Origin: Candidatus Krumholzibacteriota bacterium
GTDB lineage: Bacteria > Krumholzibacteriota > Krumholzibacteriia > JAJRXK01
Length of the DNA stretch: 64,000 nt
NCBI GenBank assembly: GCA_963727455.1
Contig: CAVSGG010000009.1
Span: 483,532 to 547,531 of the forward strand
Direction: 5' to 3'
Below, one piece after another: positions 27,468 through 58,719 of the stretch. Both the position numbers and the translations under genes were made by a program. The notes below the pieces were generated by a model. It made no database searches and was not told the DNA's origin. It saw only the letters and a list, made by a program, of their open reading frames with translations. The number at the start of each line of letters is the position of its first letter. Positions within the stretch are counted from its first letter, which is position 1.

Positions 27468-27468
27468 C

Positions 27469-30627: not shown

Positions 30628-30656
30628 GGCAACCAGCTCGCGGGGCACGGGGGCTT

Positions 30657-32163: not shown

Positions 32164-32164
32164 A

Positions 32165-38198: not shown

Positions 38199-38207
38199 GA
38201 GAACCTC

Positions 38208-40504: not shown

Positions 40505-40508
40505 GGTA

Positions 40509-41213
40509 TCACCAGCCCAAAAAGAGCATGCCTCCGCCGCAGACACTCAGAGTCACTCCCGCGAGGACCTGGCCCCAGCGATGCAGCCATCTCGCGGGTA
40601 GGACGCGCAATCCAGCCGATAGAGAGCTCACGAGCACCAACATGGTGCCGATCGTAACCAACGCGAAAATGGTGGTGACCAAGATCAGCTGGCGAGGTTT
40701 GCTCGTGCGGCCGGCACCATCACGATGGGAATCAGGGGCTCGCAGGGGCCGAACACGAAGATGGTGAAGAGGACCCATGGGTGTGATTTTGCCGTCTCCG
40801 TGGGCGTGCGTGTGGCCAGCCACGTGACTGTGAGAATGTGTATGTCGCGTGCCGTCTGAGTGGATGTGAGAATGCGTGTGGGTGCGCGACCTGAGCATGC
40901 GCCAGAGCGCCACAACCGTGTAGGTGCATCCGAAGATGAACAGCAGCCACGCAGCCACCTGCCCACGAGATGACTCGGTCGCGCTGAGTTTGAAGATGGA
41001 GAGCCCGAAAGCCACTCCGACGAGTCCCAAGACGATCGAGCTCCCGACATGTCCTAGCCCGCACACTGCGGTCAGGCCCAGAGTCCGCGGCAGTGACCAG
41101 GACTTGGCGCGTCCGATGGCGATGAAGGGCAGATAGTGATCGGGTCCGGTAAGGGTGTGGAGCAACGCTACACTCGCCGAGACCATGCACAGAGACAAGA
41201 GTTCAGGGTTCAT
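40509..41213 (-). CDS. His-rich nickel/cobalt permease-like membrane protein (UreH/HoxN-like; frameshifted)
   Basis: HTLTGPDH motif, [32 protein letters not shown] loop, PCEP; lies inside the hydrogenase locus. Confidence 0.78.
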
Positions 41214-41743
41214 GGCTTCGACCTCACCTCCCCGTTCGCTCCCTCGTGAAGCACGATCTGAGCCGAGGCGGCAAGAAGGAGTTTCTCCACCCCACCGCCC
41301 TCGAAGACCTCCTGCAAGAACTCGATCGCCTTCGCCAGATTCTCCGGCGCTCCCGCGAGAGAGCTATTCCCCGTAGGAATGAAATTCGTAGCCGCGAATG
41401 CCCAGGAGAAAAGCACGCGGAGTGACGCCGAGCGCCTCGCGCGCAGTCGCAAGTACCGTAGCCGCGTCACACATGTGCGAGGTGAAATGGGAGTCTCGTC
41501 TTCGCCTCGACTACTTCCACCGTGAATGGCGAGGGTGCGTCTATCGACGCATCGACGAAGATGACGGTTTCGTGCCTCGCCACGATCCAGGCGTCCTCCA
41601 CCGTGAGTTGATAGTCGCTCTCCACAGCTGAGCTGTGGTAGTGCGAGAACTTCGAAAGCCCGCGCACAGGCCGGACCCAAACCATCATCGAGACGACCCG
41701 GATTGCCGTATGCGTAGAGCAAATAGGGTCGCTTGGCATCCAT
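41210..41743 (-). CDS. hoxW: Hydrogenase maturation endopeptidase (frameshifted)
   Basis: YGNPGRLDDGLG, YQLTVED, VIFVDA; directly after hoxH. Confidence 0.85.
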   Translation of the reverse strand: MDAKRPYLLYAYGNPGRLDDGLGPACARAFEVLALPQLSCGERLSTHGGGRLDRGEARNRHLRRCVDRRTLAIHGGSSRGEDETPISPRTCVTRLRYLRLRARRSASLRVLFSWAFAATNFIPTGNSSLAGAPENLAKAIEFLQEVFEGGGVEKLLLAASAQIVLHEGANGEVRSKP

Positions 41744-41746
41744 GGC

Positions 41747-43177
41747 TCATGCCTTCTTGCGTCGTGCGATCACGTTCCCGTGCCCATCCACGAGTTCAAC
41801 GATGAGCGGCATCTGCCCCAGCGAATGGGTCGCACAGGACAGGCAGGGATCGTAGGCCCGAATCGCGACTTCCACGTGATTGAGCAGGCCCTCGTTGATC
41901 TCACGGCCGGTAAGGTACTTTTCCGCCACGTCCGACACGGCGCGGTTCATGGCCTCGTTGTTGGAAGTGGTGGAGACGATGAGATTGGCCATCGTCACCT
42001 GATCGTTCTCGTCCACCCGGTAGTGATGGAAGAGAGTTCCCCGGGGAGCCTCGAGAATGGCCGACCCCTTCTCCCCGGAACTCCCCCTTCACCACGAGAT
42101 CTTCTCCCTGCAAATCAGGATCGTTCAGCAGATCTCGGATCATGCTCGATGCAATGCAGAAGTTCGATCATCCGCGCCCAGTGATAGGCAAGGCTCAGGT
42201 TGTTCGGCATTGCCGCCGCTGACCGCCATGAATTCCTCGCGGGCAGCATCCGCCTCGGGGGTTCCCATGCGATCGCAGAGATTCACGCGCGCAAGTGGCC
42301 CCACCCGGTACCATCCCTTCCTCGGCCCCAAGGAGCGAATGAAGGGAAATTTCATGTACGACCACGAACGAACTTCCTCCGCGATATACTCGGCATAGTC
42401 CTGCGGATTCATTCTCTGAAAGATGATGGAACCCCTAGCGTCGATGGCCTTCAGTTTGCCGTCGTAAAGGTCGAGGGTTCCTGATTCGTCTACCAAACCC
42501 AGGTGGTTGGAGTCGAAGGCAGCAAACTGCGAGGCCGTCTCGAGGTGCGACAGCGTATAGTCCCGCGCGATGTTCACCGCGCTTCTCGACCACTCCATCT
42601 GCTGATCGATCGACGAAAGAAAGTGGTCCCTCTCCTCGATGGAGAGATTCTTGTTGACCCCGCCGGGAATGGAGCCTGTCCCGTGAATCCTCTTCCCTGC
42701 CGTGGCTTCGATGATCTCCTGTCCGTAGCGGCGCATCATGATCCCCTGCGTCGCAAGCTGCGGATACTCCTGGGCAACTCCGATGACGTTGCGCTTCGCC
42801 ACCTCTCCATCGAATCCAAAAAGAAGATCGGGAGACGCGAGATGGAAGAAATGCAAAGCGTGACTCTGGTAGATCTGCCCGTAGTGCATGAGCCGGCGAA
42901 TCTTCTCGGCAGTTGGCGTGATCTTCTCGGCACCGATGACGTAGTCCATGGCCTTCGAAGCAGCCAGATGATGGCTCACCGGACAGATGCCACAAAGTCT
43001 TTGCACCAGGACTGGAACTTCCCAATAGGGCCGGCCTTGGATGAAGCGTTCGAAACCGCGGAATTCCACCACGTGAAGGCGCGCCTGATCGACGTTCCCC
43101 CTGTCATCGAGGTGAATCGTGACCTTCCCGTGACCCTCCACCCTCGTGACCGGTTCGATGACCACTCTGGTGTTCAT
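41747..43177 (-). CDS. hoxH: NAD-reducing [NiFe]-hydrogenase large subunit, group 3d (frameshifted near the 3' end)
   Basis: EPVTRVEGHGK, L1 RLCGICPVSH, YRVGPLAR, L2 AYDPCLSCATH followed by a cleavable tail. Confidence 0.93.
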
Positions 43178-43248
43178 TCTTGCATCCCCGTGTTTTTGCT
43201 TACAAACTTTCGAGCCTGCGCTCTGACGCCCAGTCTCGAAACGATGAT

Positions 43249-43803
43249 TCAGTCGTACTTGATCAGTTCGTACGGAAGCTCGACATCCTCGTGCGATAGC
43301 AACGCCGTCAGAACCTTCCACAGAGTCTCGGCCGAGGGAGGGCATCCCATGATGTGATAGTCGACCTTGACCACTTCATGGCAGGGAATGACTCGATTCA
43401 GAAGCAGAGGAATCTCTTGATCGTTGGGAATCGTGCCGCTGGGGTTGTAGACGGTGGGGCCACTTTGATAGGCCTCGTCGAGACATTCCTTCAGTGCGAT
43501 GGGATTGCGTAGGGCCGGGATTCCGCCGGTCCGCGCGCACTCGCCCACCGAGACGAGAATCTCACAGTGCTGGCGGATTTGCTGCAGCACGTGCACGTTC
43601 TCGTCGTTGGAGCATCCCCCTTCCACCAGCCCAATGGTGCAATGATCGTGGAATTCCTTGATGTCGTCGATGGGACAGCGGTCGAAATCCGCGATCTCCA
43701 CCAGGTCCAACAAACGCTCGTCGATATCCAGGAGCGACATGTGGCAGCCAAAGCAGCCGGCCAGGGAGGTGGTAGCGATACGCGGCTTCACTTTCGTGAT
43801 CAT
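43249..43803 (-). CDS. hoxY: NAD-reducing hydrogenase small subunit
   Basis: LAGCFGCHMS, VEGGC, VGECARTGG, GCPP; short one-cluster form. Confidence 0.92.
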   Translation of the reverse strand: MITKVKPRIATTSLAGCFGCHMSLLDIDERLLDLVEIADFDRCPIDDIKEFHDHCTIGLVEGGCSNDENVHVLQQIRQHCEILVSVGECARTGGIPALRNPIALKECLDEAYQSGPTVYNPSGTIPNDQEIPLLLNRVIPCHEVVKVDYHIMGCPPSAETLWKVLTALLSHEDVELPYELIKYD

Positions 43804-44507
43804 GAGGACTGAACCTCCGGCTTCGCCGACTCGATTTCCGAGCCGATGGGCGTGTGATCGAAACGGCGCTTTCCCACCGGTACGGTGAATGCACTGCCTT
43901 TGCGTAGAATCGCGCCCACCGGACAAGCCTCCACCGCCGCTTCCGCGCTTTCGCGGTCCATGTTCTCGGTCACCACCACGCGCTTGCCCTTCCCGCGCCC
44001 GATGAACTCGAACGCCGCCCCGCGGTGGCGCTCCCTCGCCGTCTCCACACAGCGGCCGCAGAGGATGCAGCGGTTGTGGTCTACGTAGAAGTGGGGATGC
44101 TCAGCGTCCACGCTGCGCAAGGGGAATTGATAGGGAAAGCGCACCTTCTCGATGCCGAAGCGGTACGCAAGAGCCTGTAGCTCGCAGTTGCCGCTCTTCT
44201 CGCAGCAAGGGCAGAAATGGTTGCCCTCGGCGAACAGCATCTCCACGATCATGCGCCGCATCTGGCGCAGCTCGTCCGATTCGATCTCCACCCGCGCGTC
44301 CTCGGTGGCCGGTTGCGTACAGGAAGCCATGAAGCGCCCGTTCACCTTTACCATACAGACGCGGCAAGCGCCCGTCGGGTGCAATTCCTGGAATGCGCAG
44401 AGATGGGGCACGTAGATCCCGTTGTCTTCAGCGGCTTCCAGAATGCTCCTCCCCTTCTCGGTTCGAACCTTCTTTCCATCGATGCGGAAGGTGATTTTCT
44501 CAGCCAC
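43800..44507 (-). CDS. hoxU: Diaphorase Fe-S subunit
   Basis: PHLC...GACRVCMV...ASC, HFCPCCEKSGNCELQ, CILCGRCV, CPVGA. Confidence 0.92.
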   Translation of the reverse strand: MAEKITFRIDGKKVRTEKGRSILEAAEDNGIYVPHLCAFQELHPTGACRVCMVKVNGRFMASCTQPATEDARVEIESDELRQMRRMIVEMLFAEGNHFCPCCEKSGNCELQALAYRFGIEKVRFPYQFPLRSVDAEHPHFYVDHNRCILCGRCVETARERHRGAAFEFIGRGKGKRVVVTENMDRESAEAAVEACPVGAILRKGSAFTVPVGKRRFDHTPIGSEIESAKPEVQSS

Positions 44508-46305
44508 GATCGCCCTCCTCACCCAGATGCGCCGATCGCCGCCCCGCCAAAGCAGCGGCTTGCGAAGTTGCAGCAGCCAAGTCGAATCCCCTTTCGACGC
44601 CGAGCTTGCTCTTGTAGAGCTCGGGAAAGTTCTCCATTGTACTCGTCACCGGATTGTGAGAGGTCTGGCCCAAGCCGCAGCGACTTGCGGCACCCATGAC
44701 GGTCGCCAGCGAGCGCAGCAGTTCGAGATCCTCTCGCTTTCCCCAGCCCGCGCGTACTCGCTGCACGAGTTGCAGAATCACTTCGTTCCCGAAGCGGCAA
44801 GGCGTGCAGTATCCGCAGCTCTCCTCGCAGAAGAACTGCATGTAGTGCTCCACCATTGCCAATAGATCGCGCGAGTGATTGAAGATTATGATGGCTCCGC
44901 TAGTGGCTAGATCGTCGAAGGCGATGCGCCGGTCGAAACCAGCTTTCGAAATGAACTGACCCGAGGGACCTCCAACCAGGACCGCTCGGGTATTTTCCGC
45001 TCCCGACTTCTTCAGCACTTCGCGGAGGCTGGTTCCGTATTCGAACTCGTAGACCCCCGGCCATGAGCAATCTCCGCACACGCTCAGAAGCTTCGTTCCG
45101 GGAGACGATTCGGTGCCCAGTGATCGGAACCACTCGCTTCCCTTGAGCACGATGCGCGTCGCGGCGCACAGCGTTTCCACGTTGTTTACTACGGTGGGTT
45201 GGTCGCGATAGCCCTTCTCGGCCGGGAAGGGCGGTTTCGTCTTGGGATCTCCGCGCCTTCCCTCACAGCTCGAGATCAGCGCGGTCTCCTCTCCACAGAC
45301 ATAAGAGCCGGCGCCCATCTGAATCCGGATGTCGAAATCGAAACCCCTCACTCCAGCGATGGAAGGACCCAAAAGTCCTTCGTCGCGATACTCCTGAAGG
45401 CTCGCCTCGAGGAAGCGGCGGAGGTACTGGTACTCGCCCCGCAAATACACGATGCCGGTATCTGCGCCAATGGCCCTAGCCGAGATGATCATCCCCTCGA
45501 TGAACAGACCCGGGTACTCGGTGAGAAGCACGCGGTCCTTGAAGGTCCCCGGCTCTCCCTCATCCGCGTTGCAGATCACGGTCTTTTGTGAACCGCTGGC
45601 CACTGCGGCGAATTTCCACTTCGTTCCGGTCGGGAAGGCTGCACCGCCTCGACCACGCAAACCGGATTCTTCCAGGAGTTTTATAACCTGGCCCGGCTCC
45701 ATTCGCGCCACCTTGCGCACGGCCTCACCCTTGGGCCAGGGCGTCAGAATCGCGGGTCCCGCCTTCTCGATGTGGTTTTGCACCATGCTGCGCACGAGCG
45801 GGGAGGCATTGTTCCCATCTCCCACTGAGCACAGAATGGCGGCTGGATCCTTGGTCTTCCGCAGTGTATCCACGAGTTCGGGCACGCTCTCCGGCCTCAG
45901 ATTCGTCACGGGAACGCTGCCGATGAGAGCGGCCGGGGCCTGATCGCTCATGCCGATACACGGGGTCCACTGCAGACCGAAGAGCCCATCCTCAGTGACT
46001 GATCCCATGGGGATCCCCAGCTCGCGTTCGAATACGCGGGCTACGTCCTCCACCTTCGCCATGCGATCGACGACGTCGTTGCACAGACGGATGGGAATGT
46101 GGCCCCGCGGATGATCGCTCAGGAAAGCGTAGAAGGAGACTGCACTCTCCACCTCCACAGGCTCGCACGACACGGACTCGGCAATTGCAAGCGCGCTGTC
46201 TTTCGAGATGCAACCGAGTGAGGTCTGAACCTCCCGGACGATATCCATCAATCGCGTTCGGTCGTTTCCGTACCGGGCGCAGATCGAGGAAATTGGATCC
46301 GCCAT
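44500..46305 (-). CDS. hoxF: Diaphorase FMN/NADH subunit (NuoE-like domain fused to NuoF-like domain)
   Basis: SFYAF, CIGMSDQAPA, GLRGRGGAAFPTG, NADEGEPGTFKDR, YVCGEETAL, ESCGYCTPCR, CGLG. Confidence 0.93.
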   Translation of the reverse strand: MADPISSICARYGNDRTRLMDIVREVQTSLGCISKDSALAIAESVSCEPVEVESAVSFYAFLSDHPRGHIPIRLCNDVVDRMAKVEDVARVFERELGIPMGSVTEDGLFGLQWTPCIGMSDQAPAALIGSVPVTNLRPESVPELVDTLRKTKDPAAILCSVGDGNNASPLVRSMVQNHIEKAGPAILTPWPKGEAVRKVARMEPGQVIKLLEESGLRGRGGAAFPTGTKWKFAAVASGSQKTVICNADEGEPGTFKDRVLLTEYPGLFIEGMIISARAIGADTGIVYLRGEYQYLRRFLEASLQEYRDEGLLGPSIAGVRGFDFDIRIQMGAGSYVCGEETALISSCEGRRGDPKTKPPFPAEKGYRDQPTVVNNVETLCAATRIVLKGSEWFRSLGTESSPGTKLLSVCGDCSWPGVYEFEYGTSLREVLKKSGAENTRAVLVGGPSGQFISKAGFDRRIAFDDLATSGAIIIFNHSRDLLAMVEHYMQFFCEESCGYCTPCRFGNEVILQLVQRVRAGWGKREDLELLRSLATVMGAASRCGLGQTSHNPVTSTMENFPELYKSKLGVERGFDLAAATSQAAALAGRRSAHLGEEGDRG

Positions 46306-46425: not shown

Positions 46426-48024
46426 CTAGGAATCCGCGCCTGCCACCCGCGCTTGGGGAAGAGCCGCTGCCACGCTGGAGGCCACCTGGAGATTCCCCTC
46501 GCGCGAGGATTTCAAGTACGCGCGGGAATCGTGTTCCAACGCTCCCTGTGGCAGCCACTGCCAGAGGGCACCCAATTCACGCTGTACGGCGTCGCGGTAG
46601 AAAGCGGGTATGCGATCGCTTTCCCCCTCGAAGAAGGCCCGCAACTGTGGATCCCGATCAAGTTCTTTTCTGAGGTGCTGGAAGTAATGAAGCCGGCCGA
46701 GTCCTTCTGACGACACTCCGCGTACTAGATTCATCCAGCGGGGAATGGCGCCCCGGTTGGCCAGGAAACGCCTACCCATGTTCTTCCATGAGAAGGTGTA
46801 GCGGGTCAGGTCGATGACGTGATCGTAGAACTCAGTCCATTCGTAGTTGAGCGGCGCGACGTTCATGGCGTGGTTGTTGTCGAGGAAGTGGAAGGGGAAC
46901 GCTCGTACGCGGCCGCTCAACTGTAGCTCCAAATTGAGCGGTGCTGCGCGCCCAAATGCCGTCAACAACGAGTACCCCGGGAATGCGCCCGGCGTGAGAT
47001 CGATGAATTTCTTGGTCAGTTCGAATGGCTCGGCTCCACGGTCGCAGTCAAGGCCCAGCACGAAATTGGCCTGCACGTAAGGAATGTAGCGCATGATCAT
47101 TCGAATGTGCTCGGAGATGTGAAGCACTCGCTCTTCCGCCTGACGACTTCCGCAGCGCGACTTGTTGCCCAGATCGAACCAGGACTCCACTCCCGGTAGA
47201 AGCGCTCGGAATCCATTCCGCTTCAACCGCTTGACGTGGGGTTCGGTGAGGAGGGATAGAGAACTCTCTGCCACAAACTCGATACTGCCCGGAGGCACCG
47301 CCTCCTCGATGGCATCGAGATAATCGTCGAAGCGGACCCCGAAGTTGGGATCGTGCCATCCGACTTTGGGGTGTTTCATGCGCGTGCGAAGGAACTTCAG
47401 GTCATTCTTGAGCGCATCGAAGGCCAGAGGCTTGTAGTCAACGGTGGAGTCGATACAGAACGCGCAAGTATAAGGACATCCCAAGCTACCGATCATCGGA
47501 ACGATCTTCAGCAAAGGCGCCTTGCGTAGGATCGCCTCCATGAAGGGCCAGCGTTGCTGAAGGCTGGGCAGTTCCTGTGGTTGCTGCTCGGCGGAGAGAT
47601 GAATGCCACTGGGACGATGGGGCGAGCAGTCCAAGAGAACATCCTGCACCAGTTTTCGATCCGTGAAGCCGAAGACGTAATCGAAGTACTGCAGGCAGTC
47701 CTCCGGATAGCAGCGCGCGTGCGGTCCCCCAATGGCGGTAACGGCTCCCTGGGAACGGAAGTAATTGCTGAGCGCGTAAGCCAGCTGAGCGGACTGCGTG
47801 AAACTACTGAGAAATACCAAATCGCAGTCTCGCGGGAGCTCCTTCTCCAGATCTTCCAGCCCCGTGTAACAGACAAACTCGACTTGGTGCCCTTGTTCCT
47901 GACACCAGACCGCGACGACCTGCGGCATGATGGCGGCGAGATTGGCGTGCATGACGCGCGCGTAGAGTGCTCGAGTGGGACCTTTGTGAGCTAAGTCGAC
48001 GATACCGACACGGAGCTTTCGCAA
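46426..48024 (-). CDS. Cobalamin-binding radical SAM protein of unknown function
   Basis: N-terminal B12-binding-like domain (GGPHAR), SLGCPYTCAFC, HDPNFG, GVES, FVLGLD. Confidence 0.8.
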   Translation of the reverse strand: MRKLRVGIVDLAHKGPTRALYARVMHANLAAIMPQVVAVWCQEQGHQVEFVCYTGLEDLEKELPRDCDLVFLSSFTQSAQLAYALSNYFRSQGAVTAIGGPHARCYPEDCLQYFDYVFGFTDRKLVQDVLLDCSPHRPSGIHLSAEQQPQELPSLQQRWPFMEAILRKAPLLKIVPMIGSLGCPYTCAFCIDSTVDYKPLAFDALKNDLKFLRTRMKHPKVGWHDPNFGVRFDDYLDAIEEAVPPGSIEFVAESSLSLLTEPHVKRLKRNGFRALLPGVESWFDLGNKSRCGSRQAEERVLHISEHIRMIMRYIPYVQANFVLGLDCDRGAEPFELTKKFIDLTPGAFPGYSLLTAFGRAAPLNLELQLSGRVRAFPFHFLDNNHAMNVAPLNYEWTEFYDHVIDLTRYTFSWKNMGRRFLANRGAIPRWMNLVRGVSSEGLGRLHYFQHLRKELDRDPQLRAFFEGESDRIPAFYRDAVQRELGALWQWLPQGALEHDSRAYLKSSREGNLQVASSVAAALPQARVAGADS

Positions 48025-48563
48025 ACTATTCCCCCGATTCTGCAGCCGTGAGCGATGGCCACCGCGGGTGAAGCGTCGACGACGCAACCCCTTCCGATCG
48101 CGAGACGGATGGATCTGCGAGTCCTTCCGTACGCCTTACGCAATCCTGCGATGCTCGTGATCCGGAAATGGATCACTTGGGTCCCGGGGGAGCTCCGAGA
48201 TCACTCTTGAGACGGGAGCCAAACTGTGGTGTTGCGTACGAGCAAAGTAGCAGAGCAGAAGCCTCGCCGCGATTGAATTCGCTAACAAGGACGAAAGCCG
48301 GAAGAGGACAGCTGCGATCTCCTGGGCTCCAGACCCTGGAAAAATACAATAGATTCAGAGCGTTTACTCGTGAATAACCAAGCATGAGGCAAAATGAGGC
48401 GGCGGTGCGTTCGCCGTATCCCCCCTGGTCCCCAGAAGGTTTTCAAGTGTAGCATTGGCCTGCGTATTCTGGGCATGACGGTTGCACGGAAGCCCAGGCC
48501 AATGCAGTCGGGTCCGCGATTCTGGATTCGAAGGCCAGATCCACCCATCTGACGGGTTCCCGA

Positions 48564-49490
48564 ATGAGCCACTCAGCTTCTGTCACTTCCTCCACGGACC
48601 GCATTCCATCCCACGTTGCGCCCCCCCGGCGCGGGGTTTCTCCTGCCTTCCTCACGAACCTCTTTTTCGTGGGTCTAAGCATCCTCGGCGCCCCCTACTA
48701 TTTGGCGCCTCTCGCGCAGCGGGTTCGCCATCCCTTCCACGCCTGGCTCAGGCCTTCGGGCTATGTGGGGCAGAGCGCCGGCATCCTGCTCTTTCTCGGC
48801 TTCCTGTTCCTCTGGCTCTATCCGCTGCGCAAGCGAGCGCGCTGGATGTCCTTCAGCGGGTCGGTGGGAAAGTGGCTCGACGTCCACATCGTGGTGGGTT
48901 TGACCCTTCCCATCCTCGGTGCGGTTCACGCGTCCTGGCGCTTCAATGGCCTGATCGGATTGGGCTATCTGGCCATGCTCATCGTCGTGGCCAGCGGCAT
49001 CGTCGGTCGCTACATCTACTCGCGCATTCCCCGTTCGCGAAAGGGAGTAGCTCTCGGGCTGGACGAAGCCACGAAGCAACGCATGCAGCTGCTCGTGGAG
49101 CTTGCCAACGTCACCGGTCTGGAAAGAGATGTCGTTTCGAGCGTGCTGGCGGCCAGCCCCGTACCGACACGCGGTCTCGGTCTCCGCGGAACCCTCCTGC
49201 AGATGGTGCGTGACGACTTTGCACGACGAAAAGCCGCGCGTGAAATCGTTCGCCGCTGGAAGAACTTGGGGCCCGATCGGCCGCCACTGGATCGTCAAGC
49301 ATTGCGCAGCTTGCTGCGCAATGCGCGACGGCAGATGGCTCTGAGCCAGCAAGTGCGCCTCCTTGACGCGACGCAGGGCCTCTTCCGGTTCTGGCACGTT
49401 GCCCACCTGCCGGTGGCGATCACGGCTGCCATCGCAGTGACCATTCACGTCGTGGTGGCCGTTCTCTTCGGCGCCACCTGGTTCTACTAG
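48564..49490 (+). CDS. Integral membrane protein with paired TM histidines (heme b / ferric-reductase-TM-like)
   Basis: About 5 TMs; WLDVHIVVGLTLPILGAVH and FWHVAHLPVAITAAIAVTIH give two His pairs, each 14 residues apart. Confidence 0.7.
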   Translation: MSHSASVTSSTDRIPSHVAPPRRGVSPAFLTNLFFVGLSILGAPYYLAPLAQRVRHPFHAWLRPSGYVGQSAGILLFLGFLFLWLYPLRKRARWMSFSGSVGKWLDVHIVVGLTLPILGAVHASWRFNGLIGLGYLAMLIVVASGIVGRYIYSRIPRSRKGVALGLDEATKQRMQLLVELANVTGLERDVVSSVLAASPVPTRGLGLRGTLLQMVRDDFARRKAAREIVRRWKNLGPDRPPLDRQALRSLLRNARRQMALSQQVRLLDATQGLFRFWHVAHLPVAITAAIAVTIHVVVAVLFGATWFY

Positions 49491-49500
49491 GATCACCGCC

Positions 49501-50898
49501 ATGCTCTGGACCACCCTTGCATTCGTGCTTTTCACCGTGGCCTTCGCCACCTGGCACGTGCGTCGACAGAGCTCGAGGGCAGTGGCGCGCTGTCCGCGTT
49601 GCAAAGCCGTCCTTCCCTCGGGCGCCACCCAGTGTAGTTCCTGTGGTGTCCCGCTCTCCGCCTTCGAGGTGGTCGCCGCCGCCGTATCTTCCGCCGAGAC
49701 CGAGTCGCCACAGGGGCGTCCCCACGCCATCGTGCGCGCCGATCTCTGCGTGGGCTGCTCCACCTGCGTCGATGCCTGCCCTGAAGAGGGAGCCCTGCAC
49801 CTTCAGTCGAAGCTGGCCGTGGTCGACCTGGCCCGCTGCGTGGGGCATGGCGACTGTGCCAGGGCCTGTCCGGTGGGAGCGATCGTGGTCAGCGCCGGCG
49901 GTTCAGTCCAGCGCGTCGAAGTGCCTCAGGTCGATGTGAACTTCCAGAGCAACGTACCCGGCCTGTACATCGTGGGAGAATTGGGCGGACGCGGACTCAT
50001 CAAGAACGCGATCAACGAGGGCCGAATCGCGGCCGAACACGTGGCCGCTACCCTCCATGGTGAAGAGGCTCGTGGGGAGGATGTCTATGACGTGGCCATC
50101 GTGGGTTCCGGCCCGGCCGGACTCAGCGCCGGACTCGAGGCCAAGCGCCAGGGGCTAAACTACGTGCTTCTGGAGCAGGGCACCCTCGCCGATTCCATCC
50201 GCAAGTATCCGCGACACAAGTTGTTGATGGCAGAACCCATCAACGTCCCGCTCTACGGAGACCTGTGGATCTCCGACACCACCAAGGAGGCTCTGCTGAA
50301 GGCCTGGGAGGCCATCATCGAGACCACCGGCCTGCAGGTGAACACCAGCTGCCGGGTGGAGAACGCGCAGCCGCGGAATGGTCACTTCGAGCTCGAACTC
50401 AAGGAAGGAAGTCTGCGCGCCCGCTGTGTCATTTTGGCCATGGGGCGCCGAGGAACTCCCCGTCGCCTGCAAGTTCCTGGAGAAGAGGGCGAACACGTCT
50501 TCTACGACATCGTGGAGATGGAGGCCTTCGTGGGCCGGAAAGTGATCGTGGTGGGCGGCGGGGACAGCGCCATCGAATCGGCCCTTGGACTTTGCAACCA
50601 AGAGGGCTGCGAGGTCACTCTGTCCTACCGGGGAGACCGCTTCACTCGCGTGAAGGAGCGCAACCTCGCCAAACTCGAGAGAGCCGTCGCCGACCAGCGC
50701 CTCACGGTGCTCATGCAAAGTCGTTTGCGTCGTATTCAATCCAAGCGAGTGGAGATCGAAGTCGAAGGACAATTGCGGGAGCTTCCCGCCGACGATGTCA
50801 TCGTCCGCATTGGAGGAGAGCCCCCCTCGAGCTTCTTGTCCAAAGTCGGTGTCGCGATGGTGAACAAGGACATCCCCCTGGTGAGCTCGGAGGTCTGA
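49501..50898 (+). CDS. Membrane-anchored ferredoxin + FAD/NAD(P)H oxidoreductase (TrxR/YpdA-like, permuted motif order)
   Basis: N-terminal TM, CPRC..CSSC, CVGCSTCVDACP, CVGHGDCARACP, SNVPGLYIVGE, VGSGPAG, VGGGDSA..SYR. Confidence 0.85.
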   Translation: MLWTTLAFVLFTVAFATWHVRRQSSRAVARCPRCKAVLPSGATQCSSCGVPLSAFEVVAAAVSSAETESPQGRPHAIVRADLCVGCSTCVDACPEEGALHLQSKLAVVDLARCVGHGDCARACPVGAIVVSAGGSVQRVEVPQVDVNFQSNVPGLYIVGELGGRGLIKNAINEGRIAAEHVAATLHGEEARGEDVYDVAIVGSGPAGLSAGLEAKRQGLNYVLLEQGTLADSIRKYPRHKLLMAEPINVPLYGDLWISDTTKEALLKAWEAIIETTGLQVNTSCRVENAQPRNGHFELELKEGSLRARCVILAMGRRGTPRRLQVPGEEGEHVFYDIVEMEAFVGRKVIVVGGGDSAIESALGLCNQEGCEVTLSYRGDRFTRVKERNLAKLERAVADQRLTVLMQSRLRRIQSKRVEIEVEGQLRELPADDVIVRIGGEPPSSFLSKVGVAMVNKDIPLVSSEV

Positions 50899-52689
50899 GT
50901 GCTTCGCCGCCCGTTCATGATGCTCCCTCTATTTCTGAGCTGCGCCTTCATCTCCCCGGCGTTGGCTCAGATCTCTCCCGGCCCGCTCTCCTCGGCGCAC
51001 GCCTCTTTGGAAGGCAATCGCAATTGCACGCAGTGTCACGGCCTCAAGCAGGAGAGCATCCAGGAGCACTGCCTGAAGTGCCACGCGGGAGTCGCCTTCT
51101 TGCTCGAACAGGGTCGGGGCTTTCATGCCCATCTGGGGAGCGTCGAATGCGAGAAATGCCATCCCGAGCATGCGGGGACGGATTTCACACTCATCGAGTG
51201 GCCCGAGGGCTCGGCCGACAAGTTCAAGCACGAATCGACCGGCTGGGCCCTGGCGGGAGCCCACGCTCGCGCCAAATGCGGGGCCTGCCACCGTCCGAAA
51301 TTTCAAACCGGCCCGGCGGCGGTCAAAGAGCCGGCCGGCTCCATCCACGAGGGCAAGAGTTGGCTGGGACTCGAAACAGACTGCACGCACTGCCATAAGG
51401 ATCCCCACGAGGGTTCGCTGGGAAAGGACTGCGCGCACTGTCACGGGCAGGAGGCCTGGCGCCCGGTCTCGAACTTCGACCACGCGCGAACCACCTATCC
51501 CCTGGATGGCCGGCACGCGCAGCTCAAATGCGCGCAATGCCACCAGAACCAGCAGCTCGGAGCCAAGACCGATTCAAACGGAAAGGTGGTTCCGCTCTAT
51601 CGTCCCCTACCCCATCAGGACTGTCAGCCCTGTCACTCCGATCCGCATCAGGGCCGCTTCCAGGGAAAGTGCAGCGGGTGCCACACCACGGCAGGGTTCA
51701 AGCTGGCCAGCACGAGCGGCTTCAACCACACATTGACCTCCTTCCCACTGCGCGGAGAACACGCGAAACTGCGCTGCGAGAAATGCCACGATCCGCAATC
51801 AGCCTGGGGCAAACGGCCTGCACACGATCGCTGCGACCGTTGTCACCGCAATCCCCACGCGGAGCAAGTTCTCAGCGTGAAGGGCGTCAGGCCTGACTGT
51901 GCGGCGTGTCATGACGAAACGAGTTGGAAGAAGTCGAACTTCGACCTCACGCGACATGCGAAGACTGCATTCGCGCTCACGGGCGCTCACGCCAAGCTGA
52001 GTTGCGGCAAGTGTCATCGCGCCGCCGAGGGTGAGACGCCGGATCCCGCCTGGGGCCCCGCGCACGTCCGCTTGCGCATGGAATCCAAGCGCTGCCTGGA
52101 TTGCCATGCACCGGCCCACGGAAAGGAGATCGATCCCTCGCGGGACTGCACGGAATGCCATGGGGTGGACGCGTGGCGTCCTTCTCGTGTGGATGCCAAG
52201 GCGCACGCAGCGCTGGGGTGGCCATTGGAGGGACGGCATGGCGAGATCCAGTGTGGAAGCTGTCACCTGCCGCGCGGCTCGAAGAATGTCTCCACGGGTC
52301 TGGATGCCGACCTGGCCGGTACCAAATGGCTCTTTACCTCCTTGGGACGACCCTGCGCCGAATGCCACCTCGACCCTCACGAGGGGCGCTATGCGAAGAG
52401 CGCGGACTGGAGCGCGAAGAACCCCTGCCGTCGCTGCCACTCCATGAGAACCTTCAGTCCCTCGACCATCGGAGTCGAGGATCACGCCGCTTTCGGCTTC
52501 AAGCTGGAAGGCGCTCACCGCACCGTTCCCTGCTTCGCATGTCACCGCGAGCTAGCTCAAGCACCGGCAACTTCGAGTCTCGTCGCGAGCAAAGCGTCGC
52601 CCAGAAAACTCGCCTTCAAAGACAAGCGACGAGCCTGCCGGGATTGTCACACTTCGGCCACACTCCCCTCCTCTGGAGTTCGACAATGA
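50899..52689 (+). CDS. Exported multiheme cytochrome c, 20 CxxCH motifs
   Basis: Signal peptide ending PALA; 20 CxxCH counted by hand; repeated H..T.F/WPL.G.H modules. Confidence 0.93.
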   Translation: MLRRPFMMLPLFLSCAFISPALAQISPGPLSSAHASLEGNRNCTQCHGLKQESIQEHCLKCHAGVAFLLEQGRGFHAHLGSVECEKCHPEHAGTDFTLIEWPEGSADKFKHESTGWALAGAHARAKCGACHRPKFQTGPAAVKEPAGSIHEGKSWLGLETDCTHCHKDPHEGSLGKDCAHCHGQEAWRPVSNFDHARTTYPLDGRHAQLKCAQCHQNQQLGAKTDSNGKVVPLYRPLPHQDCQPCHSDPHQGRFQGKCSGCHTTAGFKLASTSGFNHTLTSFPLRGEHAKLRCEKCHDPQSAWGKRPAHDRCDRCHRNPHAEQVLSVKGVRPDCAACHDETSWKKSNFDLTRHAKTAFALTGAHAKLSCGKCHRAAEGETPDPAWGPAHVRLRMESKRCLDCHAPAHGKEIDPSRDCTECHGVDAWRPSRVDAKAHAALGWPLEGRHGEIQCGSCHLPRGSKNVSTGLDADLAGTKWLFTSLGRPCAECHLDPHEGRYAKSADWSAKNPCRRCHSMRTFSPSTIGVEDHAAFGFKLEGAHRTVPCFACHRELAQAPATSSLVASKASPRKLAFKDKRRACRDCHTSATLPSSGVRQ

Positions 52690-53707
52690 AAAGTCTCTGG
52701 CTCTTGCTCCTTCTCGTCCTGCTCGCTAATTCGGCACGAGCCGAATCGCCTCACGGACCCATGAAAGCGGACTGTGGAAGCTGCCATGGCGCCGATGACT
52801 GGTCGAAAGTCGAAATCCCCGCGGACTTCAATCACAACGAGTTTGATTTTCAATTGCGTGGCGCGCACAAGGGAATTCCCTGCAAACAGTGCCATGAGAG
52901 TCTGGTTTTCAGCGATGCGCCGCAGGATTGCTCGGGTTGCCATGCTGACGTTCACCAGGGTGAGTTCGGCCTGGACTGTGATCGTTGTCACGGGACGCGC
53001 AGTTTCATCGATCGAGGCGATCAATTACGGCTCCACCGCAGCACGCGTTTCCCTCTGAGGGGTAGCCACTACACTCAGGACTGCGAATCGTGTCATCCGT
53101 CCTCTGCCGGAGGACAGCTTGTCTACGTGAATACGCCGACTGAATGCGTGAGTTGTCATCGCGATGACTACGAAGCGGCCAAGAGCCCCGATCATGTCAT
53201 GGGCAACTTCTCGCAGGACTGCGAACTGTGTCATTCGCCCACCCTGTGGCGAGGTGCGAGCTTCAACCACGCCTCGACCGGCTTCCCTCTCGACGGCGCA
53301 CACAAACCCTTGGACTGCTCCGAGTGCCACACCAGCGGGAGCTTCTCCGGTTTGGATCCCGCGTGCTATTCCTGCCACGAGCAGGACTACCTTTCTACCA
53401 ACGATCCCGATCATCAATCCATGGGTTTCGGCACCAGCTGTGAACAATGCCACAACACCACGCGCTGGGATGACGCGAACTTCGATCACGACGGGCTGTT
53501 CTTCCCCATCTACTCCGGACGGCATCAGGGCACGTGGAACGATTGTACGGACTGCCACGTCAACGCTTCGAATTACGCTGTGTTCTCCTGCATCGACTGT
53601 CATGCGCACAGCGATCAAGCCGAGTCGATGCGGATCACAGCGAAGTTCGAGGCAACTACATCTACGAGAGCAATGCCTGTTATGACTGTCATCCGAGGGG
53701 AAGATAG
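52686..53707 (+). CDS. Exported multiheme cytochrome c, 13 CxxCH motifs (frameshift before the last heme)
   Basis: Signal MKSLWLLLLLVLLANSARA; 12 CxxCH in frame plus ...ESNACYDCHPRGR* in the shifted frame; ATGA overlap with the upstream gene. Confidence 0.9.
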
Positions 53708-53709
53708 CC

Positions 53710-55277
53710 ATGCGTCACTCGCTAGCCCTCATTCTCGCGCTGTTACTCGCGCTTTTGCGCGATCCCCGCGTCGGGGGCCTCCATCGCCAAGATCAGCTAT
53801 CTCACGAGCTCCACCGTCTACATCGATGCGGGGAATGCTCAGGGTATTGCCGAAGGGGATTCCGTGGAGGTCTGGCGAGGCGGCCAGCGGCTCGGGATCA
53901 CTGGTGGTGGACTACACTTCACAAACTCGCTCTACCTGTCCGTTGAAAGAGGTGTCCTTCCAAGCGCGGGTGGGGGACGAAATCCATTTCGTGCCGGGAG
54001 AGGTCCGCGATCACAGGCTGCACCGGTGGTGATCGAGGAAGAGGTGCCGAGGAAATCAAGAACAAGCCCTGTGGAAGGGCCGCGTGGGAGCGAGCTTTCT
54101 CGGAGTGCGAACCCGTGAGGATTTCGGCCAGGACTTCGACCAGCCCGCCGGGGATCTCAGGATCAGCGGAAGGCATCTCGCCCAAGACCATTTGGAGCTG
54201 GAAATCGATGCGCGAGCTCGCCATACCTACAGACGGCCCACCGAAGGCGCCAAGGTCGAACACGGCATTGAACCGCGTCTATCGCGCTTCGCTTGGCATG
54301 GTCGCCACCCGCTTCGCCCTCGGGCATCGTATTGGGACGTCAATCCTCTCCCGAACTTCGAATCTCAGTATTTTCGACGGCGCGTCCGCCACCTTGCGCC
54401 ACGAGCGATGGAGTGGCGGACTGACCGGGGGAGTTCAACCCACGCTCGGCGATCTCGAATTTTCGACCGAGGTGATGGAGTTGGGTGCGTTCTATCGCAG
54501 GCAAGCGCCAAGGGATCCAGAGAGCGCGCTGGAATCTTGACCCTGGCCGGGATCGCCTCCTACCGTAAGAGCGAAATCAACCGCGAATATCTGTACCTCC
54601 AGGGTTCCTGGGCCGATCCCCAGTGGTCCCTTTTCGCTTCGCAGGAATTGGATCTCAATCGCGGATGGAAGACGCAACTTCGATAGCAAGCGTGATTTCT
54701 CCCACCGCGAGCTACCTCTTTGCGCGTTATCGGGTTCGACGCGAGCTGCGGCTCAAGGCGGGCTTTGACAATCGACATCGGGTGAGGCTGTGGACCGATC
54801 GGGAAACGCCGGAGACCCTTTTCGATGAAACCTACCGCCAGGGATATTGGGTGGGCGCCGATTCACGTCTGGGGCGATCATGGAACTTGGGAATGGACTT
54901 CCGGGGCAGCTCCGGGGGAACAGCTGGGAGCGCCACCGTGATCAGCCTTCGCGCCAGTTGGCTCGATCTGCGCCGACTGCCGGTGGAAATCGGGGGGCGC
55001 TTCAGCCGCTTCGGCAACGATAGCTACAATGGAATCCTGGCCTCTCTGAATCTGGGCTGGGAGCTCAACTCCACTCTTGCGCCTCGATGGTGAAGGTGGG
55101 CTTCGCAGGGAAAACCACGACGGCTTCGTCGTGGATCAGACCGACCAGCACTGGCTCGGCCTTAGGGCAGAAGCCGCATTGCAGGCGGGGTGGTACCTGG
55201 ATTTCTCGGGAGAGTGGACCCGTGGCGGTATTGACGCGTCCGATCTGTTCTACTCTTCCCTGAACTACCGCTTTTAG
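53710..55277 (+). CDS. Outer-membrane beta-barrel protein with an N-terminal beta domain (several frameshifts)
   Basis: Signal peptide; VYIDAG...GDSVEV domain; alternating beta strands (YLYLQGSW, LRLKAGFD, WNLGMDF, WYLDFSGEW); C-terminal SLNYRF with terminal Phe. Confidence 0.72.
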
Positions 55278-55479
55278 CGCTCGGCCCTCTGGCCAAAGCC
55301 GAATGCTCTCCCGCGAGCCCCTGGGACAAGCGGGTTCTTGTATCCGTCTTGGACTTCAAGTGCTAGCATTTTCCCATTGGTTCAAATCCTGACCATCTCC
55401 CGAGCCCGCCCGCACGTCTCCTCGTGCTCCCAAGGGCCTTCGCGGGAGATGTCTCGCCAAGTTCATTCGGGAGGATTTC

Positions 55480-55665: not shown

Positions 55666-55742
55666 GACCTGATGGAAACGGCTGCCGCTGAGAAATGCTA
55701 CGGCGGCAGCCGACACTCCCCCTCGAAGCAAACCTCGCTCAC

Positions 55743-56330
55743 ATGAGGAAAGAAGAGAAAATCGTCGATCGCTTGAAGTTTCACTGGGCCACCCCCTCCC
55801 GCTGGAAGGACCTGGAGAAGCTCTTCGGGGAGCGCGGTGCCTGTGGGGGCTGCTGGTGCATGGTGTGGCGCCTGTCGAGCAAGGACTGGCATGCTGGCAA
55901 GGGGGGAGCGAACAAACGCGCCCTCAAACGCTTGGTGAGCAAGGGAGAGCGCCCCGGTGTTCTGGCCTACTTGGGAAAGGAAGCCATCGCCTGGTGCGCG
56001 ATCGCCCCGCGGAGCGAGTACTCCTATCTGGCCCGTTCGCGTGTCCTGCGAGCCATTGACGACGAACCCGTGTGGTCCATCTCCTGTCTCTTCATTCTGA
56101 AGCCCTATCGCCGCCAGGGAGTTTCGGTGGCTCTACTTCAGGCCGCAGTCGAGCTCGCCAAGAAGCGGGGAGCCAAAATCGTCGAGGGTTACCCGAGTTT
56201 GCCGAAGATGGAGAAAATTCCCGATACCTTCGTGTGGACCGGACTCCCCTCCGCCTTCCAGAAATCCGGTTTCAGCGAAGCGGCCCGCCATTCCCCGACT
56301 CGTCCCATCATGCGCCGCCGGTCGGACTGA
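55743..56330 (+). CDS. GNAT family N-acetyltransferase
   Basis: GACGGCWCM, WCAIAPR, WSISCLFI, RRQGVS motif A, VEGYP. Confidence 0.87.
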   Translation: MRKEEKIVDRLKFHWATPSRWKDLEKLFGERGACGGCWCMVWRLSSKDWHAGKGGANKRALKRLVSKGERPGVLAYLGKEAIAWCAIAPRSEYSYLARSRVLRAIDDEPVWSISCLFILKPYRRQGVSVALLQAAVELAKKRGAKIVEGYPSLPKMEKIPDTFVWTGLPSAFQKSGFSEAARHSPTRPIMRRRSD

Positions 56331-56352: not shown

Positions 56353-56895
56353 ATGTCGCTTCCAAGTCCCTCACAACCCATCCTGAAGTGGATTCGCTGC
56401 ACGGTCGACCCGGACCAGCGTCAGGCATTCGACAGGGCGCAGCGCGCCTGGTCCATGCTGCACGAAGTCGAGGGGTTCTTGGCTCAGACCGGGGGCTGGG
56501 ATTCAGAGCGCCAAAATGAAGCGGGAGTTCTCGCCCTCTGGCGCAGACCTGAGCACTACCAAGCATTCATGGACCGTGTCCACGACCGCGTGGTCGCCGC
56601 CTCGGGTCAGGACCGCAGCTATAGGCGGATACGGATTGAACTGTTCAGGCTCGCAGCCAGCGGGACCCCTCTCGCGAGGGAACTTTCCGAGGTCTTCACC
56701 CGCGCGCAGTCGATCCACCTCGCCCCACTGCCCGCTTGCGCCATCCGCGTCACCCTGCAATGGGGCGAAGCGAAGGAGGAAGATTTCATCGCAAGCCCGA
56801 GCGCGTCCGAGGGATCATCGCTCTCGACGGAGACAATCAGCCGCGATTCGCTCTTGCGCGTCGAGCCCGCCTGGCGAGTTCGAAGCTCAGATTGA
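56353..56895 (+). CDS. DUF4937/YdbC-like (ABM-fold) protein
   Basis: LKWIRCTV...F..AQ..W...GFLAQTGGW...FMDRVHD. Confidence 0.6.
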   Translation: MSLPSPSQPILKWIRCTVDPDQRQAFDRAQRAWSMLHEVEGFLAQTGGWDSERQNEAGVLALWRRPEHYQAFMDRVHDRVVAASGQDRSYRRIRIELFRLAASGTPLARELSEVFTRAQSIHLAPLPACAIRVTLQWGEAKEEDFIASPSASEGSSLSTETISRDSLLRVEPAWRVRSSD

Positions 56896-56953
56896 GCCTT
56901 GCCGCCACACGAGGCTTGGACTTAGAGTGCCAGCAGAGCCCAGGGAGACGTCC

Positions 56954-57995
56954 GTGACCCGCGAACATCTCAACCGTACCCCCGCCGAATCCGAACATGC
57001 CCTGCGCGCGCTGCGCTGGTTTCTGGTCATCGCCATGATCATCGTGATCGGTGTGACGGGCTATCGTCTGATCGAGGGCTGGAGCTGGCTGGAGTCCATC
57101 TATATGGTGGCGATCACCATGAGCACGGTGGGATTTGGCGAAACCAGACCGCTGAGCGACGCCGGTGCATCTCTTCACAATCTTCTTCATCATGCTCTCG
57201 GTCGGAACCATCGGTTTCGCACTGGCTCAACTCGTCAATTTCGCGCTCGAAGGGCATATCGGAGGCTTCCGGAGGGAGCGGCGAATGCAAAAGAAGATCG
57301 ACAAGCTCAGCGAACACATCATCGTCTGCGGTTTCGGCCGCGTGGGGCAAGAGGTCGTCAGCGAACTTCGACTGCGCGGGGGAACCGGGATGATCATCGA
57401 CCTCAACCCACCCGTCGAGGAACTCGAGGGCGAGAACATCTGTTACCTCAGAGGGAACGCCTCAAGCGAGGAAGTTCTGCTCCAGGCCGGAATTCTGCGC
57501 GCCCGCTGTCTCATCGCGGCCATGGACAGCGACACCGAAAACGTCTTCACGGTGCTGACGGCTCGCACCCTCAACCCCGATCTCCAGCTCATCGCGCGCG
57601 CCAGCGAGCCCGGAACCAGCCGCAAGCTCATGATGGTGGGGGCCAATCGGGTCATCTCTCCCTACGTGACCAGTGGCAGGCGCATGGCTGCGATGGCCAT
57701 GCAACCCGAGGTCGTCGATTTTCTGGAACAGTTCAACCAGCCTCTCGACGAAATCGGACTCGAGCTGGGGAAGGTCGAAGTTACGCCAAACTGCGAGCTA
57801 GACCAACACAGCCTGGCCGAGGTCGACTTGCGGCGGCGCAGCGGGGCCATGGTCCTGGCCGTCTACACTTCTGATGGAGTGGTCTTCAATCCCGATGCTC
57901 ACATGCAGCTGGAATCGGGGCAGCGCCTCATGGTACTCGGCAGCCGTCAGCAGCTCATCAAATTGAAGGAGATGGCAGCCGGCGCCAAATCCTAG
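56954..57995 (+). CDS. Two-TM potassium channel with RCK/TrkA domains (frameshift near 57170)
   Basis: Filter TMSTVGFGE, HIIVCGFGRVG, D.ENVF, GANRVISPY, TrkA-C FNPD. Confidence 0.9.
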
Positions 57996-58125: not shown

Positions 58126-58719
58126 ATGAAGGACGCTGACGTGATCAGATTTTCCAGAAAGCTACCAATGCTCGCACTCTCGTGGAGCGTGCTTTTCCTG
58201 GTGATGTTCTCGGCCGGCAACTCGTCTGCCGCCGACGAGGAGCAAGGCGAGAAGGCCGCGCCAGCTCCCTCGGCGAATGAGCAGATCGTGAGCCTCGAGG
58301 GAATGTGCGCTCAAAACGCGGAAGCGATGGCTGCTGCGGATTCTGCGAAGTCGCTCTATGAGAGACTCGGTGGCAGGGAGGGCATCCACAAGATCGTTGC
58401 CGAGGTCGTGCGACTCCACGGCCAGAACAAGGACTTCGACCGTTTCATGGACGAGGTCGACACGAAGCATCTCATCGAGGGCGTGACGCAATTCATGGTC
58501 TCGGCTACCGGGGGCCCCGGCGATTACGAAGGACCGAGCCTGGCTGAATCGCACGCCCATCTCAAATTGACCAATGCCGAATTTCTCTCGGCGGGCCACG
58601 ATGTCATGCAGGGGATGAAGAACATGGGTTGCAAAGAGGCAGAGATCAACGAGCTCATCTGCATGTTCGTCTCGCTACGTGATCAAGTCGTGATCGATTC
58701 TGACAAGGAACTCGATTGA
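58126..58719 (+). CDS. Group I truncated hemoglobin with an N-terminal signal peptide
   Basis: SLYERLGG, QFMVSATGGP..YEG, proximal His in AESHAHL, LTNAEF; preceded by a hydrophobic signal ending SSA. Confidence 0.8.
   Translation: MKDADVIRFSRKLPMLALSWSVLFLVMFSAGNSSAADEEQGEKAAPAPSANEQIVSLEGMCAQNAEAMAAADSAKSLYERLGGREGIHKIVAEVVRLHGQNKDFDRFMDEVDTKHLIEGVTQFMVSATGGPGDYEGPSLAESHAHLKLTNAEFLSAGHDVMQGMKNMGCKEAEINELICMFVSLRDQVVIDSDKELD

Follow-up and report, generated by a model that had tools for sequence, protein, structure and literature searches.

The window analysed here is a 64,000-nt stretch of a Krumholzibacteriota genome (contig C9 of assembly G000, positions 483532–547531), and it carries five closely packed genes on the plus strand at 48564–55277, hereafter named g1 to g5, that form a candidate electron conduit across the cell envelope. 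The genes encode a putative di-haem inner-membrane protein, an iron–sulfur flavoprotein, two exported multihaem cytochromes c and a predicted outer-membrane beta-barrel (Table 1). The open reading frame (ORF) map of the window gave intergenic gaps of 10, 0, −4 and 2 nt; the ATG of g4 at 52686 overlaps the stop of g3 by 4 nt, and the ATG of g5 lies at 53710. A preliminary description, made from the letters alone, had proposed these five genes with this spacing, and the ORF map agrees with it. Its His-paired membrane protein is borne out by four invariant histidines, its membrane-anchored protein with ferredoxin, flavin adenine dinucleotide (FAD) and NAD(P)H parts by Pfam domains and an N-terminal helix, and every component expected of a trans-envelope conduit is encoded. 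The source genome comprises 3.46 Mb in 18 contigs, with a completeness of 88.85% and a contamination of 6.68%, and it contains cytochrome c maturation genes, which count in favour of a conduit. A scan for sigma-70 promoters returned 0 sites in the stretch, with a consensus that may not apply to the Krumholzibacteriota lineage, and terminator-like sites in the stretch were no more frequent than in shuffles.

Table 1. Genes of the candidate conduit and annotated neighbours; positions are those of the window
Feature	Position	Strand	Description
g1	48564-49490	+	308 aa, five predicted transmembrane helices; putative di-haem b cytochrome of the PCC3/PCC4 inner-membrane protein type
g2	49501-50898	+	465 aa; N-terminal transmembrane anchor, Cys4 zinc ribbon, predicted 2x[4Fe-4S], TrxR-like FAD/NAD(P)H domain
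g3	50899-52689	+	596 aa exported cytochrome c, 20 CXXCH; probable periplasm-spanning wire
g4	52686-53707	+	Exported cytochrome c of ~340 aa, 13 CXXCH after one frame change near 53623
g5	53710-55277	+	Predicted outer-membrane beta-barrel of ~520 aa, preceded by a small beta domain at the N-terminus; 7 or more frame changes
B12-binding radical-SAM gene	46426-48087	-	Upstream of the cluster
Hox-like NAD-linked [NiFe] hydrogenase, then hyp maturation genes	36524-46305	-	Assigned by Pfam
NuoE/NuoF-like diaphorase fusion	44500-46305	-	
NuoG-like Fe-S subunit	43800-44522	-	
[NiFe] small subunit	43249-43926	-	
[NiFe] large subunit	42140-43345	-	Start only; profile positions 1-77 of 508
GNAT acetyltransferase	55695-56330		Downstream
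DUF4937 protein	56353-56895		Downstream
Ion_trans_2 ion-channel protein	56516-57874		Downstream
Bacterial-like globin	58126-58719		Downstream

The inner-membrane protein and its flavoprotein partner

AlphaFold modelled g1 with confidence as a bundle of helices (predicted local distance difference test score, pLDDT, 89.9; predicted template modelling score, pTM, 0.81) with helices at residues 27–41, 67–91, 101–122, 129–152 and 267–301. An insert of about 110 residues between the fourth and fifth transmembrane helices is cytoplasmic by prediction and helical at 166–265. Residue conservation in g1 and g2 was counted in 66 aligned sequences, g1 having first been aligned with 13, and H108, H122, H281 and H295 were invariant (66/66), forming two H-x13-H pairs on helices 3 and 5. 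The residues of the extended motifs W104-x3-H108-x13-H122 and W277-x3-H281-x13-H295 were kept in 65–66 of the 66 sequences (W104 in 65), as were those of the SGXXG motif on helix 4 (S144-G145-x-x-G148; 65–66/66). This pattern is the four-histidine signature of a two-haem protein, and haem binding by g1 is putative.

The g1 family is large, with 4374 representatives at E ≤ 0.001 in a 50%-clustered library, and its sub-threshold Pfam matches among the 66 members were to DUF4405 (34/66), Ni_hydr_CYTB (24/66) and Ferric_reduct (22/66). The PF01794 cut-off was reached neither by g1, which had no match, nor by the family, whose best E was 0.006. An exhaustive VIA structure search listed the designed two-haem bundle 4D2 (7ah0; Z 12.3, root-mean-square deviation 2.6, 101 aligned residues), together with the E. 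coli superoxide oxidase CybB (Z 10.9), FdnI (Z 9.5), the hydrogenase-1 cytochrome b (Z 9.0), STEAP1 (Z 8.5) and SpNOX (Z 8.4), all of them Z values that, by the tool's own warning, fall in the range common for helical bundles. These neighbours are consistent with a two-haem bundle but not decisive.

Pfam assigned g2 to Pyr_redox_3 (E 6.6e-43), Pyr_redox_2 and Fer4 dicluster families including Fer4_10. The protein begins with a hydrophobic helix, followed by RRQSSR, and has a CPRC...CSSC zinc ribbon that is shared by 38 of the 66 relatives. The dinucleotide-binding motifs GxGxxG (202–207) and GGGD (352–355), as well as R377 and R383, were invariant (66/66), and so were the cluster ligands C83, C89, C93, C113, H116, C119 and C123, with C86 being Cys in 58/66. 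The position of H116 in the second motif, CxxHxxCxxxCP, suggests a His-ligated or three-iron cluster. His-ligated clusters in [NiFe] hydrogenases sit at the exit points to partner proteins, and H116 of g2 may be seen by analogy with them.

The nearest solved chains of g2 are those of YpdA/Bdr (7a76, 7a7b) and TrxR-like ferredoxin-NADP reductases. In the YpdA/Bdr family the Cys of the GGGPCG motif has a recognised role; the corresponding position is Ala in g2 and, among the 66 sequences, Ala in 51, Gly in 9, Ser in 6 and Cys in 0. The score of g2 against TIGR04018 (YpdA/Bdr) was 173.6 bits at a cut-off of 339.9. Because this score lies under the cut-off and the motif Cys is never present, the assignment of g2 as a YpdA equivalog was rejected.

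The predicted topology places the C-terminus of g1 outside. Since g2 would start outside, has a single helix and continues with RRQSSR, its redox domains should by the positive-inside rule face the cytoplasm, where they would lie beside the conserved insert of g1. A joint prediction of the g1–g2 complex with two haems and two 4Fe-4S clusters scored 0.16 and 0.04 against a mark of 0.32, which is evidence neither way. Searches for natural g1–g2 fusions among longer proteins gave 4 and 5 matches. The sole match with flavoprotein domains, P0003, was rejected, as its central part is garbled and of low complexity, which suggests read-through across a frameshift. An 805-aa Atlas cluster (56 members, most commonly Myxococcota; Pyr_redox_2/3 and Fer4_10) that reached a TM-score of 0.75 to the g1 model is an unverified fusion lead.

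Multihaem cytochromes and a barrel with broken reading frames

The Pfam matches in g3 are Cytochrome_C7, in 5 stretches, and Cytochrom_c3_2, and its number of haem motifs recurs in four intact relatives. In g4 as assembled, 12 CXXCH motifs are in frame, and the 13th (CYDCH) is reached only after a shift near 53623. The 20 and 13 haems of the preliminary description accordingly hold for g3 as it stands and for g4 with a frame correction; that description had corrected the frames of g4 and g5 without saying so, while asking for polishing. The N-termini of both proteins look like signal peptides, and neither has a lipobox. Pfam found only c7/c3-type multihaem modules in g3 and g4, and a search with Pfam and NCBIfam for a catalytic domain in either protein found none. 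The g4 homologues (loci L024–L102) carry 10–68 haem motifs, most commonly 13 and 16, and many of the other counts run on in steps of three (19, 22, 25, 28, 31, 34, 37, 40, 43, 52, 55 and 58). These steps imply that tri-haem c7-like modules have been gained and lost in g4 while g3 stayed at 20.

The g5 gene ends in ...LNYRF with a stop at 55275–55277, and its pieces are spread over three frames. Pfam and NCBIfam gave no match for the fragments. A profile built from 41 intact homologues was covered by six consecutive pieces of the window from position 28 to 531 of 531, so the gene content of g5 is complete and only its frame is broken. An intact relative of 575 aa (L025:17244–18971) was predicted to fold as a barrel of 22 strands, with a small beta domain ahead of it at the N-terminus (pLDDT 84.8). 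Foldseek matched this model to the usher pores PapC and FimD and to porins, with low TM-scores, and by its modelled fold the g5 family is a large outer-membrane barrel to which no solved structure is closely related. The barrel gene ending in YRF that had been proposed for this position keeps its ending and, through the relative, its fold, and it is interrupted in the window.

Logan contigs from four metagenome runs (wetland and salt marsh) were aligned to 52600–55400, in pieces 90–99% identical to the window. They carry indels of 1–3 nt at 53623, 53757, 53894, 54013, 54041, 54049, 54063, 54263, 54525, 54675, 54691 and 55073, with four more besides, and these coincide with the frame changes that had been deduced beforehand from the homologues. 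An extra T behind 53623 was present in contigs from 3 runs. With 12 edits applied, g4 became a protein of 340 aa with 13 motifs and the end ...CHPRGR, and g5 joined into two long pieces. The short-read assemblies fragment between 54060 and 55400.

Because contigs from elsewhere carry indels at these sites and other genes of the window are also broken, the frameshifts in g4 and g5 are very probably consensus errors of the assembly in a strain-variable region. The alternative is that the frameshifts are genuine, which would make g4 and g5 pseudogenes and the outer half of the conduit dead in this genome. Decay of this kind would suit the crowding of at least eight frame changes within 53620–55090 against none in the preceding 5 kb, the indel sites that are not homopolymers and the patchy occurrence of the cluster within the genus, and the contigs used for the indel check come from other strains. 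It is nevertheless unlikely, given that a 1–3-nt indel stands at each deduced shift in contigs from four other metagenome runs and that the frame-consistent pieces of g4 and g5 have no internal stops and span nearly the whole g5 profile. Moreover, HypF, the [NiFe] large subunit and a sulfatase elsewhere in the window are broken or partial as well, and the assembly combines its contamination with duplicated regions.

Conservation of the gene set

Relatives of the g1 family were collected in two scans with one genome per species, which confirmed at least 579 and at least 580 of them, and the best 80 from each scan gave 159 distinct loci. The first set of 80 loci covers Krumholzibacteriota, Eisenbacteria, Gemmatimonadota, metagenome-assembled genomes (MAGs) labelled Latescibacteria or Acidobacteria, Bacteroidota and one locus each from Calditrichota, Marinimicrobia and Ignavibacteria, and the second set of 79 comes from Ignavibacteria and Bacteroidota. 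No cultured carrier occurs among these 159 best-scoring loci, all of which are labelled MAG.

The g2 gene accompanies g1 in 153 of the 159 loci (77/80 in the first set and 76/79 in the second), and all five genes are found in 102 (54/80 and 48/79). In the first set, g2 follows g1 in the same direction in 58 loci, lies divergently upstream in 18, all Gemmatimonadota, and comes after g5 in 1; the three loci without it are all contigs that end at or before g4. The second set has 75 loci with g1>g2 and 1 with g2 after g5, and its three loci without g2 are L141 and two short ones (4.9 and 10 kb). A further order, g2>g1>g3, occurs in more distant class-level relatives, so that the g1–g2 linkage holds in four arrangements (g1>g2>g3, divergent g2<g1, g2 after g5, and g2>g1>g3). 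Chance is excluded by this conserved synteny in other genomes: the five genes co-occur far beyond it, and the conserved set includes the flavoprotein. None of the three outcomes that the preliminary description had named as refuting it was encountered.

Among the 26 first-set loci without g5, 24 have less than 2.4 kb of contig past the best g4 match or no g4 match at all. Locus L056 has 2.35 kb past g4, yet its g4 ORF reaches almost to the contig end, and the remaining locus, L023, belongs to the congener G001, which carries the g4–g5 pair elsewhere. This distribution bears on a reading in which g1 and g2 would export reducing power to the periplasm in the manner of MsrQ or DsbD, the cytochromes would reduce soluble substrates there and the barrel would serve as a substrate porin. 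The lack of a lipobox in both cytochromes would fit such a system, as would the ordinary ushers and porins that are the best, low-scoring barrel matches. Three observations make it rather improbable. The barrel gene follows g4 directly (2 nt) and is present in the first set wherever there is enough contig past g4, except in the congener G001; the 10–68 haems of g4, with three-haem steps common, suit a variable-length wire more than an enzyme; and the cytochromes lack a detectable catalytic domain.

Weighing the conduit reading

Taken together, the operon is read as a porin–cytochrome conduit of the PCC3 kind with its own cytoplasmic input module, a reading to which we give a probability of roughly 55%. 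Several findings weigh against it besides the unspecific range of the g1 structural scores. At the level of single genes, g1 has no Pfam or NCBIfam match above cut-off, its model has no Foldseek match in the PDB at E ≤ 0.001, and g4 and g5 are not ORFs in the window as assembled. The whole family is known from predictions alone, and He et al. 2017 (PMC5566968), in the available text, put the same type of inner-membrane protein in exchange with the quinone pool, with inward flow. At the level of loci, L141, from an Ignavibacteriaceae MAG, shows neither g2 nor cytochromes nor a barrel in the 9 kb to either side of g1, and it is the only amply flanked locus where the g1–g2 linkage fails. Within the genus, g1 is present in the source genome and in G001, and three further genomes (G002–G004) are without g1 and g5. 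In G001, moreover, the g4–g5 pair sits about 210 kb from g1–g3 on the same contig.

In that congener, g1–g3 lie at about 183–185 kb (L023) with frame breaks in g2 and g3, and a g4 with 19 haems and a g5 whose frame is broken once lie at about 395–398 kb (L103; G001:C9:384000–400000, 11047–14322). A loss of g4 and g5 from G001 was rejected on account of this distant pair. The identity to the window is about 42% for g4, as against 84% for g1 and 71% for g3, and the outer components may thus evolve much faster or have been exchanged. Among related genomes more widely, the g1 query found a match in 18 of 41.

Proposed electron route and its meaning

The analysis shows the domains, the motifs, the modelled folds and the conserved gene linkage, and from these we infer cofactor binding, a g1–g2 contact, a direction of flow, an acceptor and quinone independence. 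NAD(P)H would reduce the FAD of g2 at the cytoplasmic face, and electrons would then cross the two iron–sulfur clusters of g2, one of them with the invariant His in place of its second Cys. They would enter g1 at the inner b-haem (His108/His281), move to the outer b-haem (His122/His295) and pass to the 20-haem g3 in the periplasm. Exit would take place via g4 with its 13 haems, which would either run through the 22-strand g5 or dock on it. The extracellular acceptor may be a mineral of Fe(III) or Mn(IV), humic matter or another cell acting as partner.

The most likely direction is outward, with NAD(P)H as the donor and the acceptor outside the cell. It would be the thermodynamically easy one and would dissipate the membrane potential rather than build it; the system would therefore resemble a NOX-like sink that regenerates NAD(P)+ for redox balance, not a coupling site. 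Tentatively, and with less confidence than the conduit itself, the cluster may be viewed as a quinone-independent, two-membrane NAD(P)H:extracellular-acceptor oxidoreductase, that is, a bacterial NOX in which a mineral, a humic substance or a cell takes the place of oxygen.

The same hardware could also run inward, with electrons from Fe(II), Mn(II), reduced humics or a cathode passing through g1 to quinone or via g2 to NAD(P)+. The first PCC3 and PCC4 clusters came from Fe(II) oxidisers, and the founding study modelled them as inward conduits (PMC5566968), and multihaem wires are in principle reversible. Delivery from such donors to NAD(P)+, however, would have to climb in redox potential and to overcome a membrane potential that is negative inside, and the cluster encodes no coupling subunit. 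The listed carriers, moreover, belong mostly to lineages described as heterotrophs (PMC9769843, as far as its text was available), and inward flow is quite improbable.

To our knowledge, all characterised Gram-negative routes of extracellular electron transfer draw on the quinol pool. A conduit that NAD(P)H supplies directly would, if true, have a different entry point and act as a redox-balancing valve instead of an energy-coupling chain. Bacteria of the FCB group and Gemmatimonadota, which are largely fermentative or organotrophic, would thereby have an electron sink outside respiration. Many lineages of soil, sediment and wastewater keep the gene set (Gemmatimonadota, Eisenbacteria, Krumholzibacteriota, Bacteroidota and Ignavibacteria), and its function would bear on the share of iron, manganese and humic reduction carried out by organisms that are not counted as metal reducers. 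The g1 and g2 proteins, together only 773 residues, form a small and directly testable target.

Genomic neighbourhood and assembly quality

Upstream of the cluster, on the opposite strand, lie the radical-SAM gene and the hydrogenase locus of Table 1. The latter is a second NAD(P)H-linked module next door, which is suggestive of a redox-balancing neighbourhood. Its HypF is split over two overlapping ORFs, and HypD matches profile positions 201–279 only. The four annotated genes downstream of g5 have no evident link to the conduit.

The part of the window at 16000–33500 holds short ORFs, and the phase of the third-codon-position GC content (GC3) switches often at 16–33 kb. Sulfatase matches are distributed over three ORFs (28375–30691), an acyl-CoA dehydrogenase ORF is without its C-terminal domain, a P5CR dimerisation-domain match lies in an ORF (30657–31181) that overlaps another, and a molybdopterin oxidoreductase match is partial. 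These broken ORFs indicate many assembly frame errors beyond those in g4 and g5. In addition, the two cytochrome c maturation loci of the genome (G000:C8:287216–292172 and G000:C9:26589–31545) have identical or near-identical scores and look like a duplicated (haplotig) region, in agreement with the contamination of 6.68%.

Comparison with known systems

The principle of MtrCAB and of the Geobacter porin–cytochrome system Pcc (OmbB-OmaB-OmcB), a multihaem wire combined with an outer-membrane barrel, is the same here. Those systems take their electrons from quinol through CymA, ImcH or CbcL, and the MtrB barrel has 26 strands, as against 22 in the g5 relative. The cluster is not an Mtr system, because g3 scored 41.7 bits against the DmsE/MtrA decahaem model TIGR03508, whose cut-off is 192.2; moreover, g3 and g4 are not lipoproteins.

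At the inner membrane, g1 is similar to the NOX/ferric reductase domain (PF01794) and to MsrQ in its two putative b-haems and in the His pairs 13 apart on helices 3 and 5. The likeness extends to the proposed function, in which cytoplasmic NAD(P)H feeds a flavin and the electron is delivered across the membrane, and SpNOX and STEAP are among the structural neighbours of g1. In contrast, NOX proteins have a fused FNR-type flavin domain, whereas here a separate TrxR/YpdA-like protein with two dinucleotide domains and two predicted iron–sulfur clusters would take its place. The NOX and ferric reductase domains also have six helices, compared with five in g1, which stays below the Pfam cut-off.

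Two papers on Krumholzibacteria and iron cycling, one of them PMC9769843, mention only OmcS- and Cyc2-like genes in the text available. No description of the five-gene form, or of a fused iron–sulfur flavoprotein in FCB phyla or Gemmatimonadota, was found in the literature, where the supplements of He et al. and of the ptd study may list such genes. The view in the preliminary description that the arrangement is undescribed is not supported as written, for the PCC3/PCC4 type of inner-membrane protein (PMC5566968) and the ptd operon (bioRxiv 10.1101/2023.11.21.568154) are already in print.

The ptdABCDEFG operon, which is subgroup II of PCC4, was predicted, with ptdAB transcripts seen, and joins a porin–cytochrome cluster to an FAD/NAD(P) oxidoreductase, a protein with 2x[4Fe-4S] and a ferric-reductase-like membrane protein (bioRxiv 10.1101/2023.11.21.568154, available portion). 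It shares the logic of the present cluster, in which a cytoplasmic pyridine-nucleotide module is joined to the conduit. According to that portion of the text, the flavoprotein and the iron–sulfur protein of Ptd are separate genes, the latter with a cyclic-nucleotide-binding domain, whereas one fused protein is encoded here; Ptd also has three periplasmic cytochromes with 5, 4 and 10 haems instead of two with 20 and 13. The gene order differs from g1–g5 as well, in a comparison made by description. By its cytochrome content, the cluster does not fit within PCC4/Ptd.

The closest agreement is with PCC3, which was itself predicted from genomes (He, Barco, Emerson & Roden 2017, PMC5566968; Hoover et al. 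2023, PMC10734462; both in available part). The inner-membrane protein (IMP) of PCC3 and PCC4 is defined in PMC5566968 by a length of about 300 aa and five helices, of which helix 4 bears SGXXG and helices 3 and 5 each bear WX3HX13H; it is likened there to the ferric-reductase domain and cytochrome b, and the PCC3 and PCC4 membrane proteins are said to have no significant overall homology to each other. As far as that definition goes, g1 has every published motif. The long periplasmic cytochrome of PCC3 has a median of 21 haems, close to the 20 of g3; the second cytochrome is described as repeat-rich and variable with a median of 34, which compares with 13 haems in g4 and the wide spread among its homologues; and the PCC3 porin has its counterpart in g5, with the 22-strand barrel of the intact homologue. 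The differences are the hosts, Proteobacteria for PCC3 and Krumholzibacteriota, other FCB-group phyla and Gemmatimonadota here, with none of the 159 loci proteobacterial, and the flavoprotein, which the available PCC3 text does not mention and which here, as an iron–sulfur protein with a transmembrane anchor, is found in 153/159 loci. Flow in PCC3 was modelled to the quinone pool by He et al. and the likeness of the present cluster to it is seen in motifs and gene content. The five-gene form is a variant of the already predicted PCC3 kind, and it is analogous to Ptd/PCC4.

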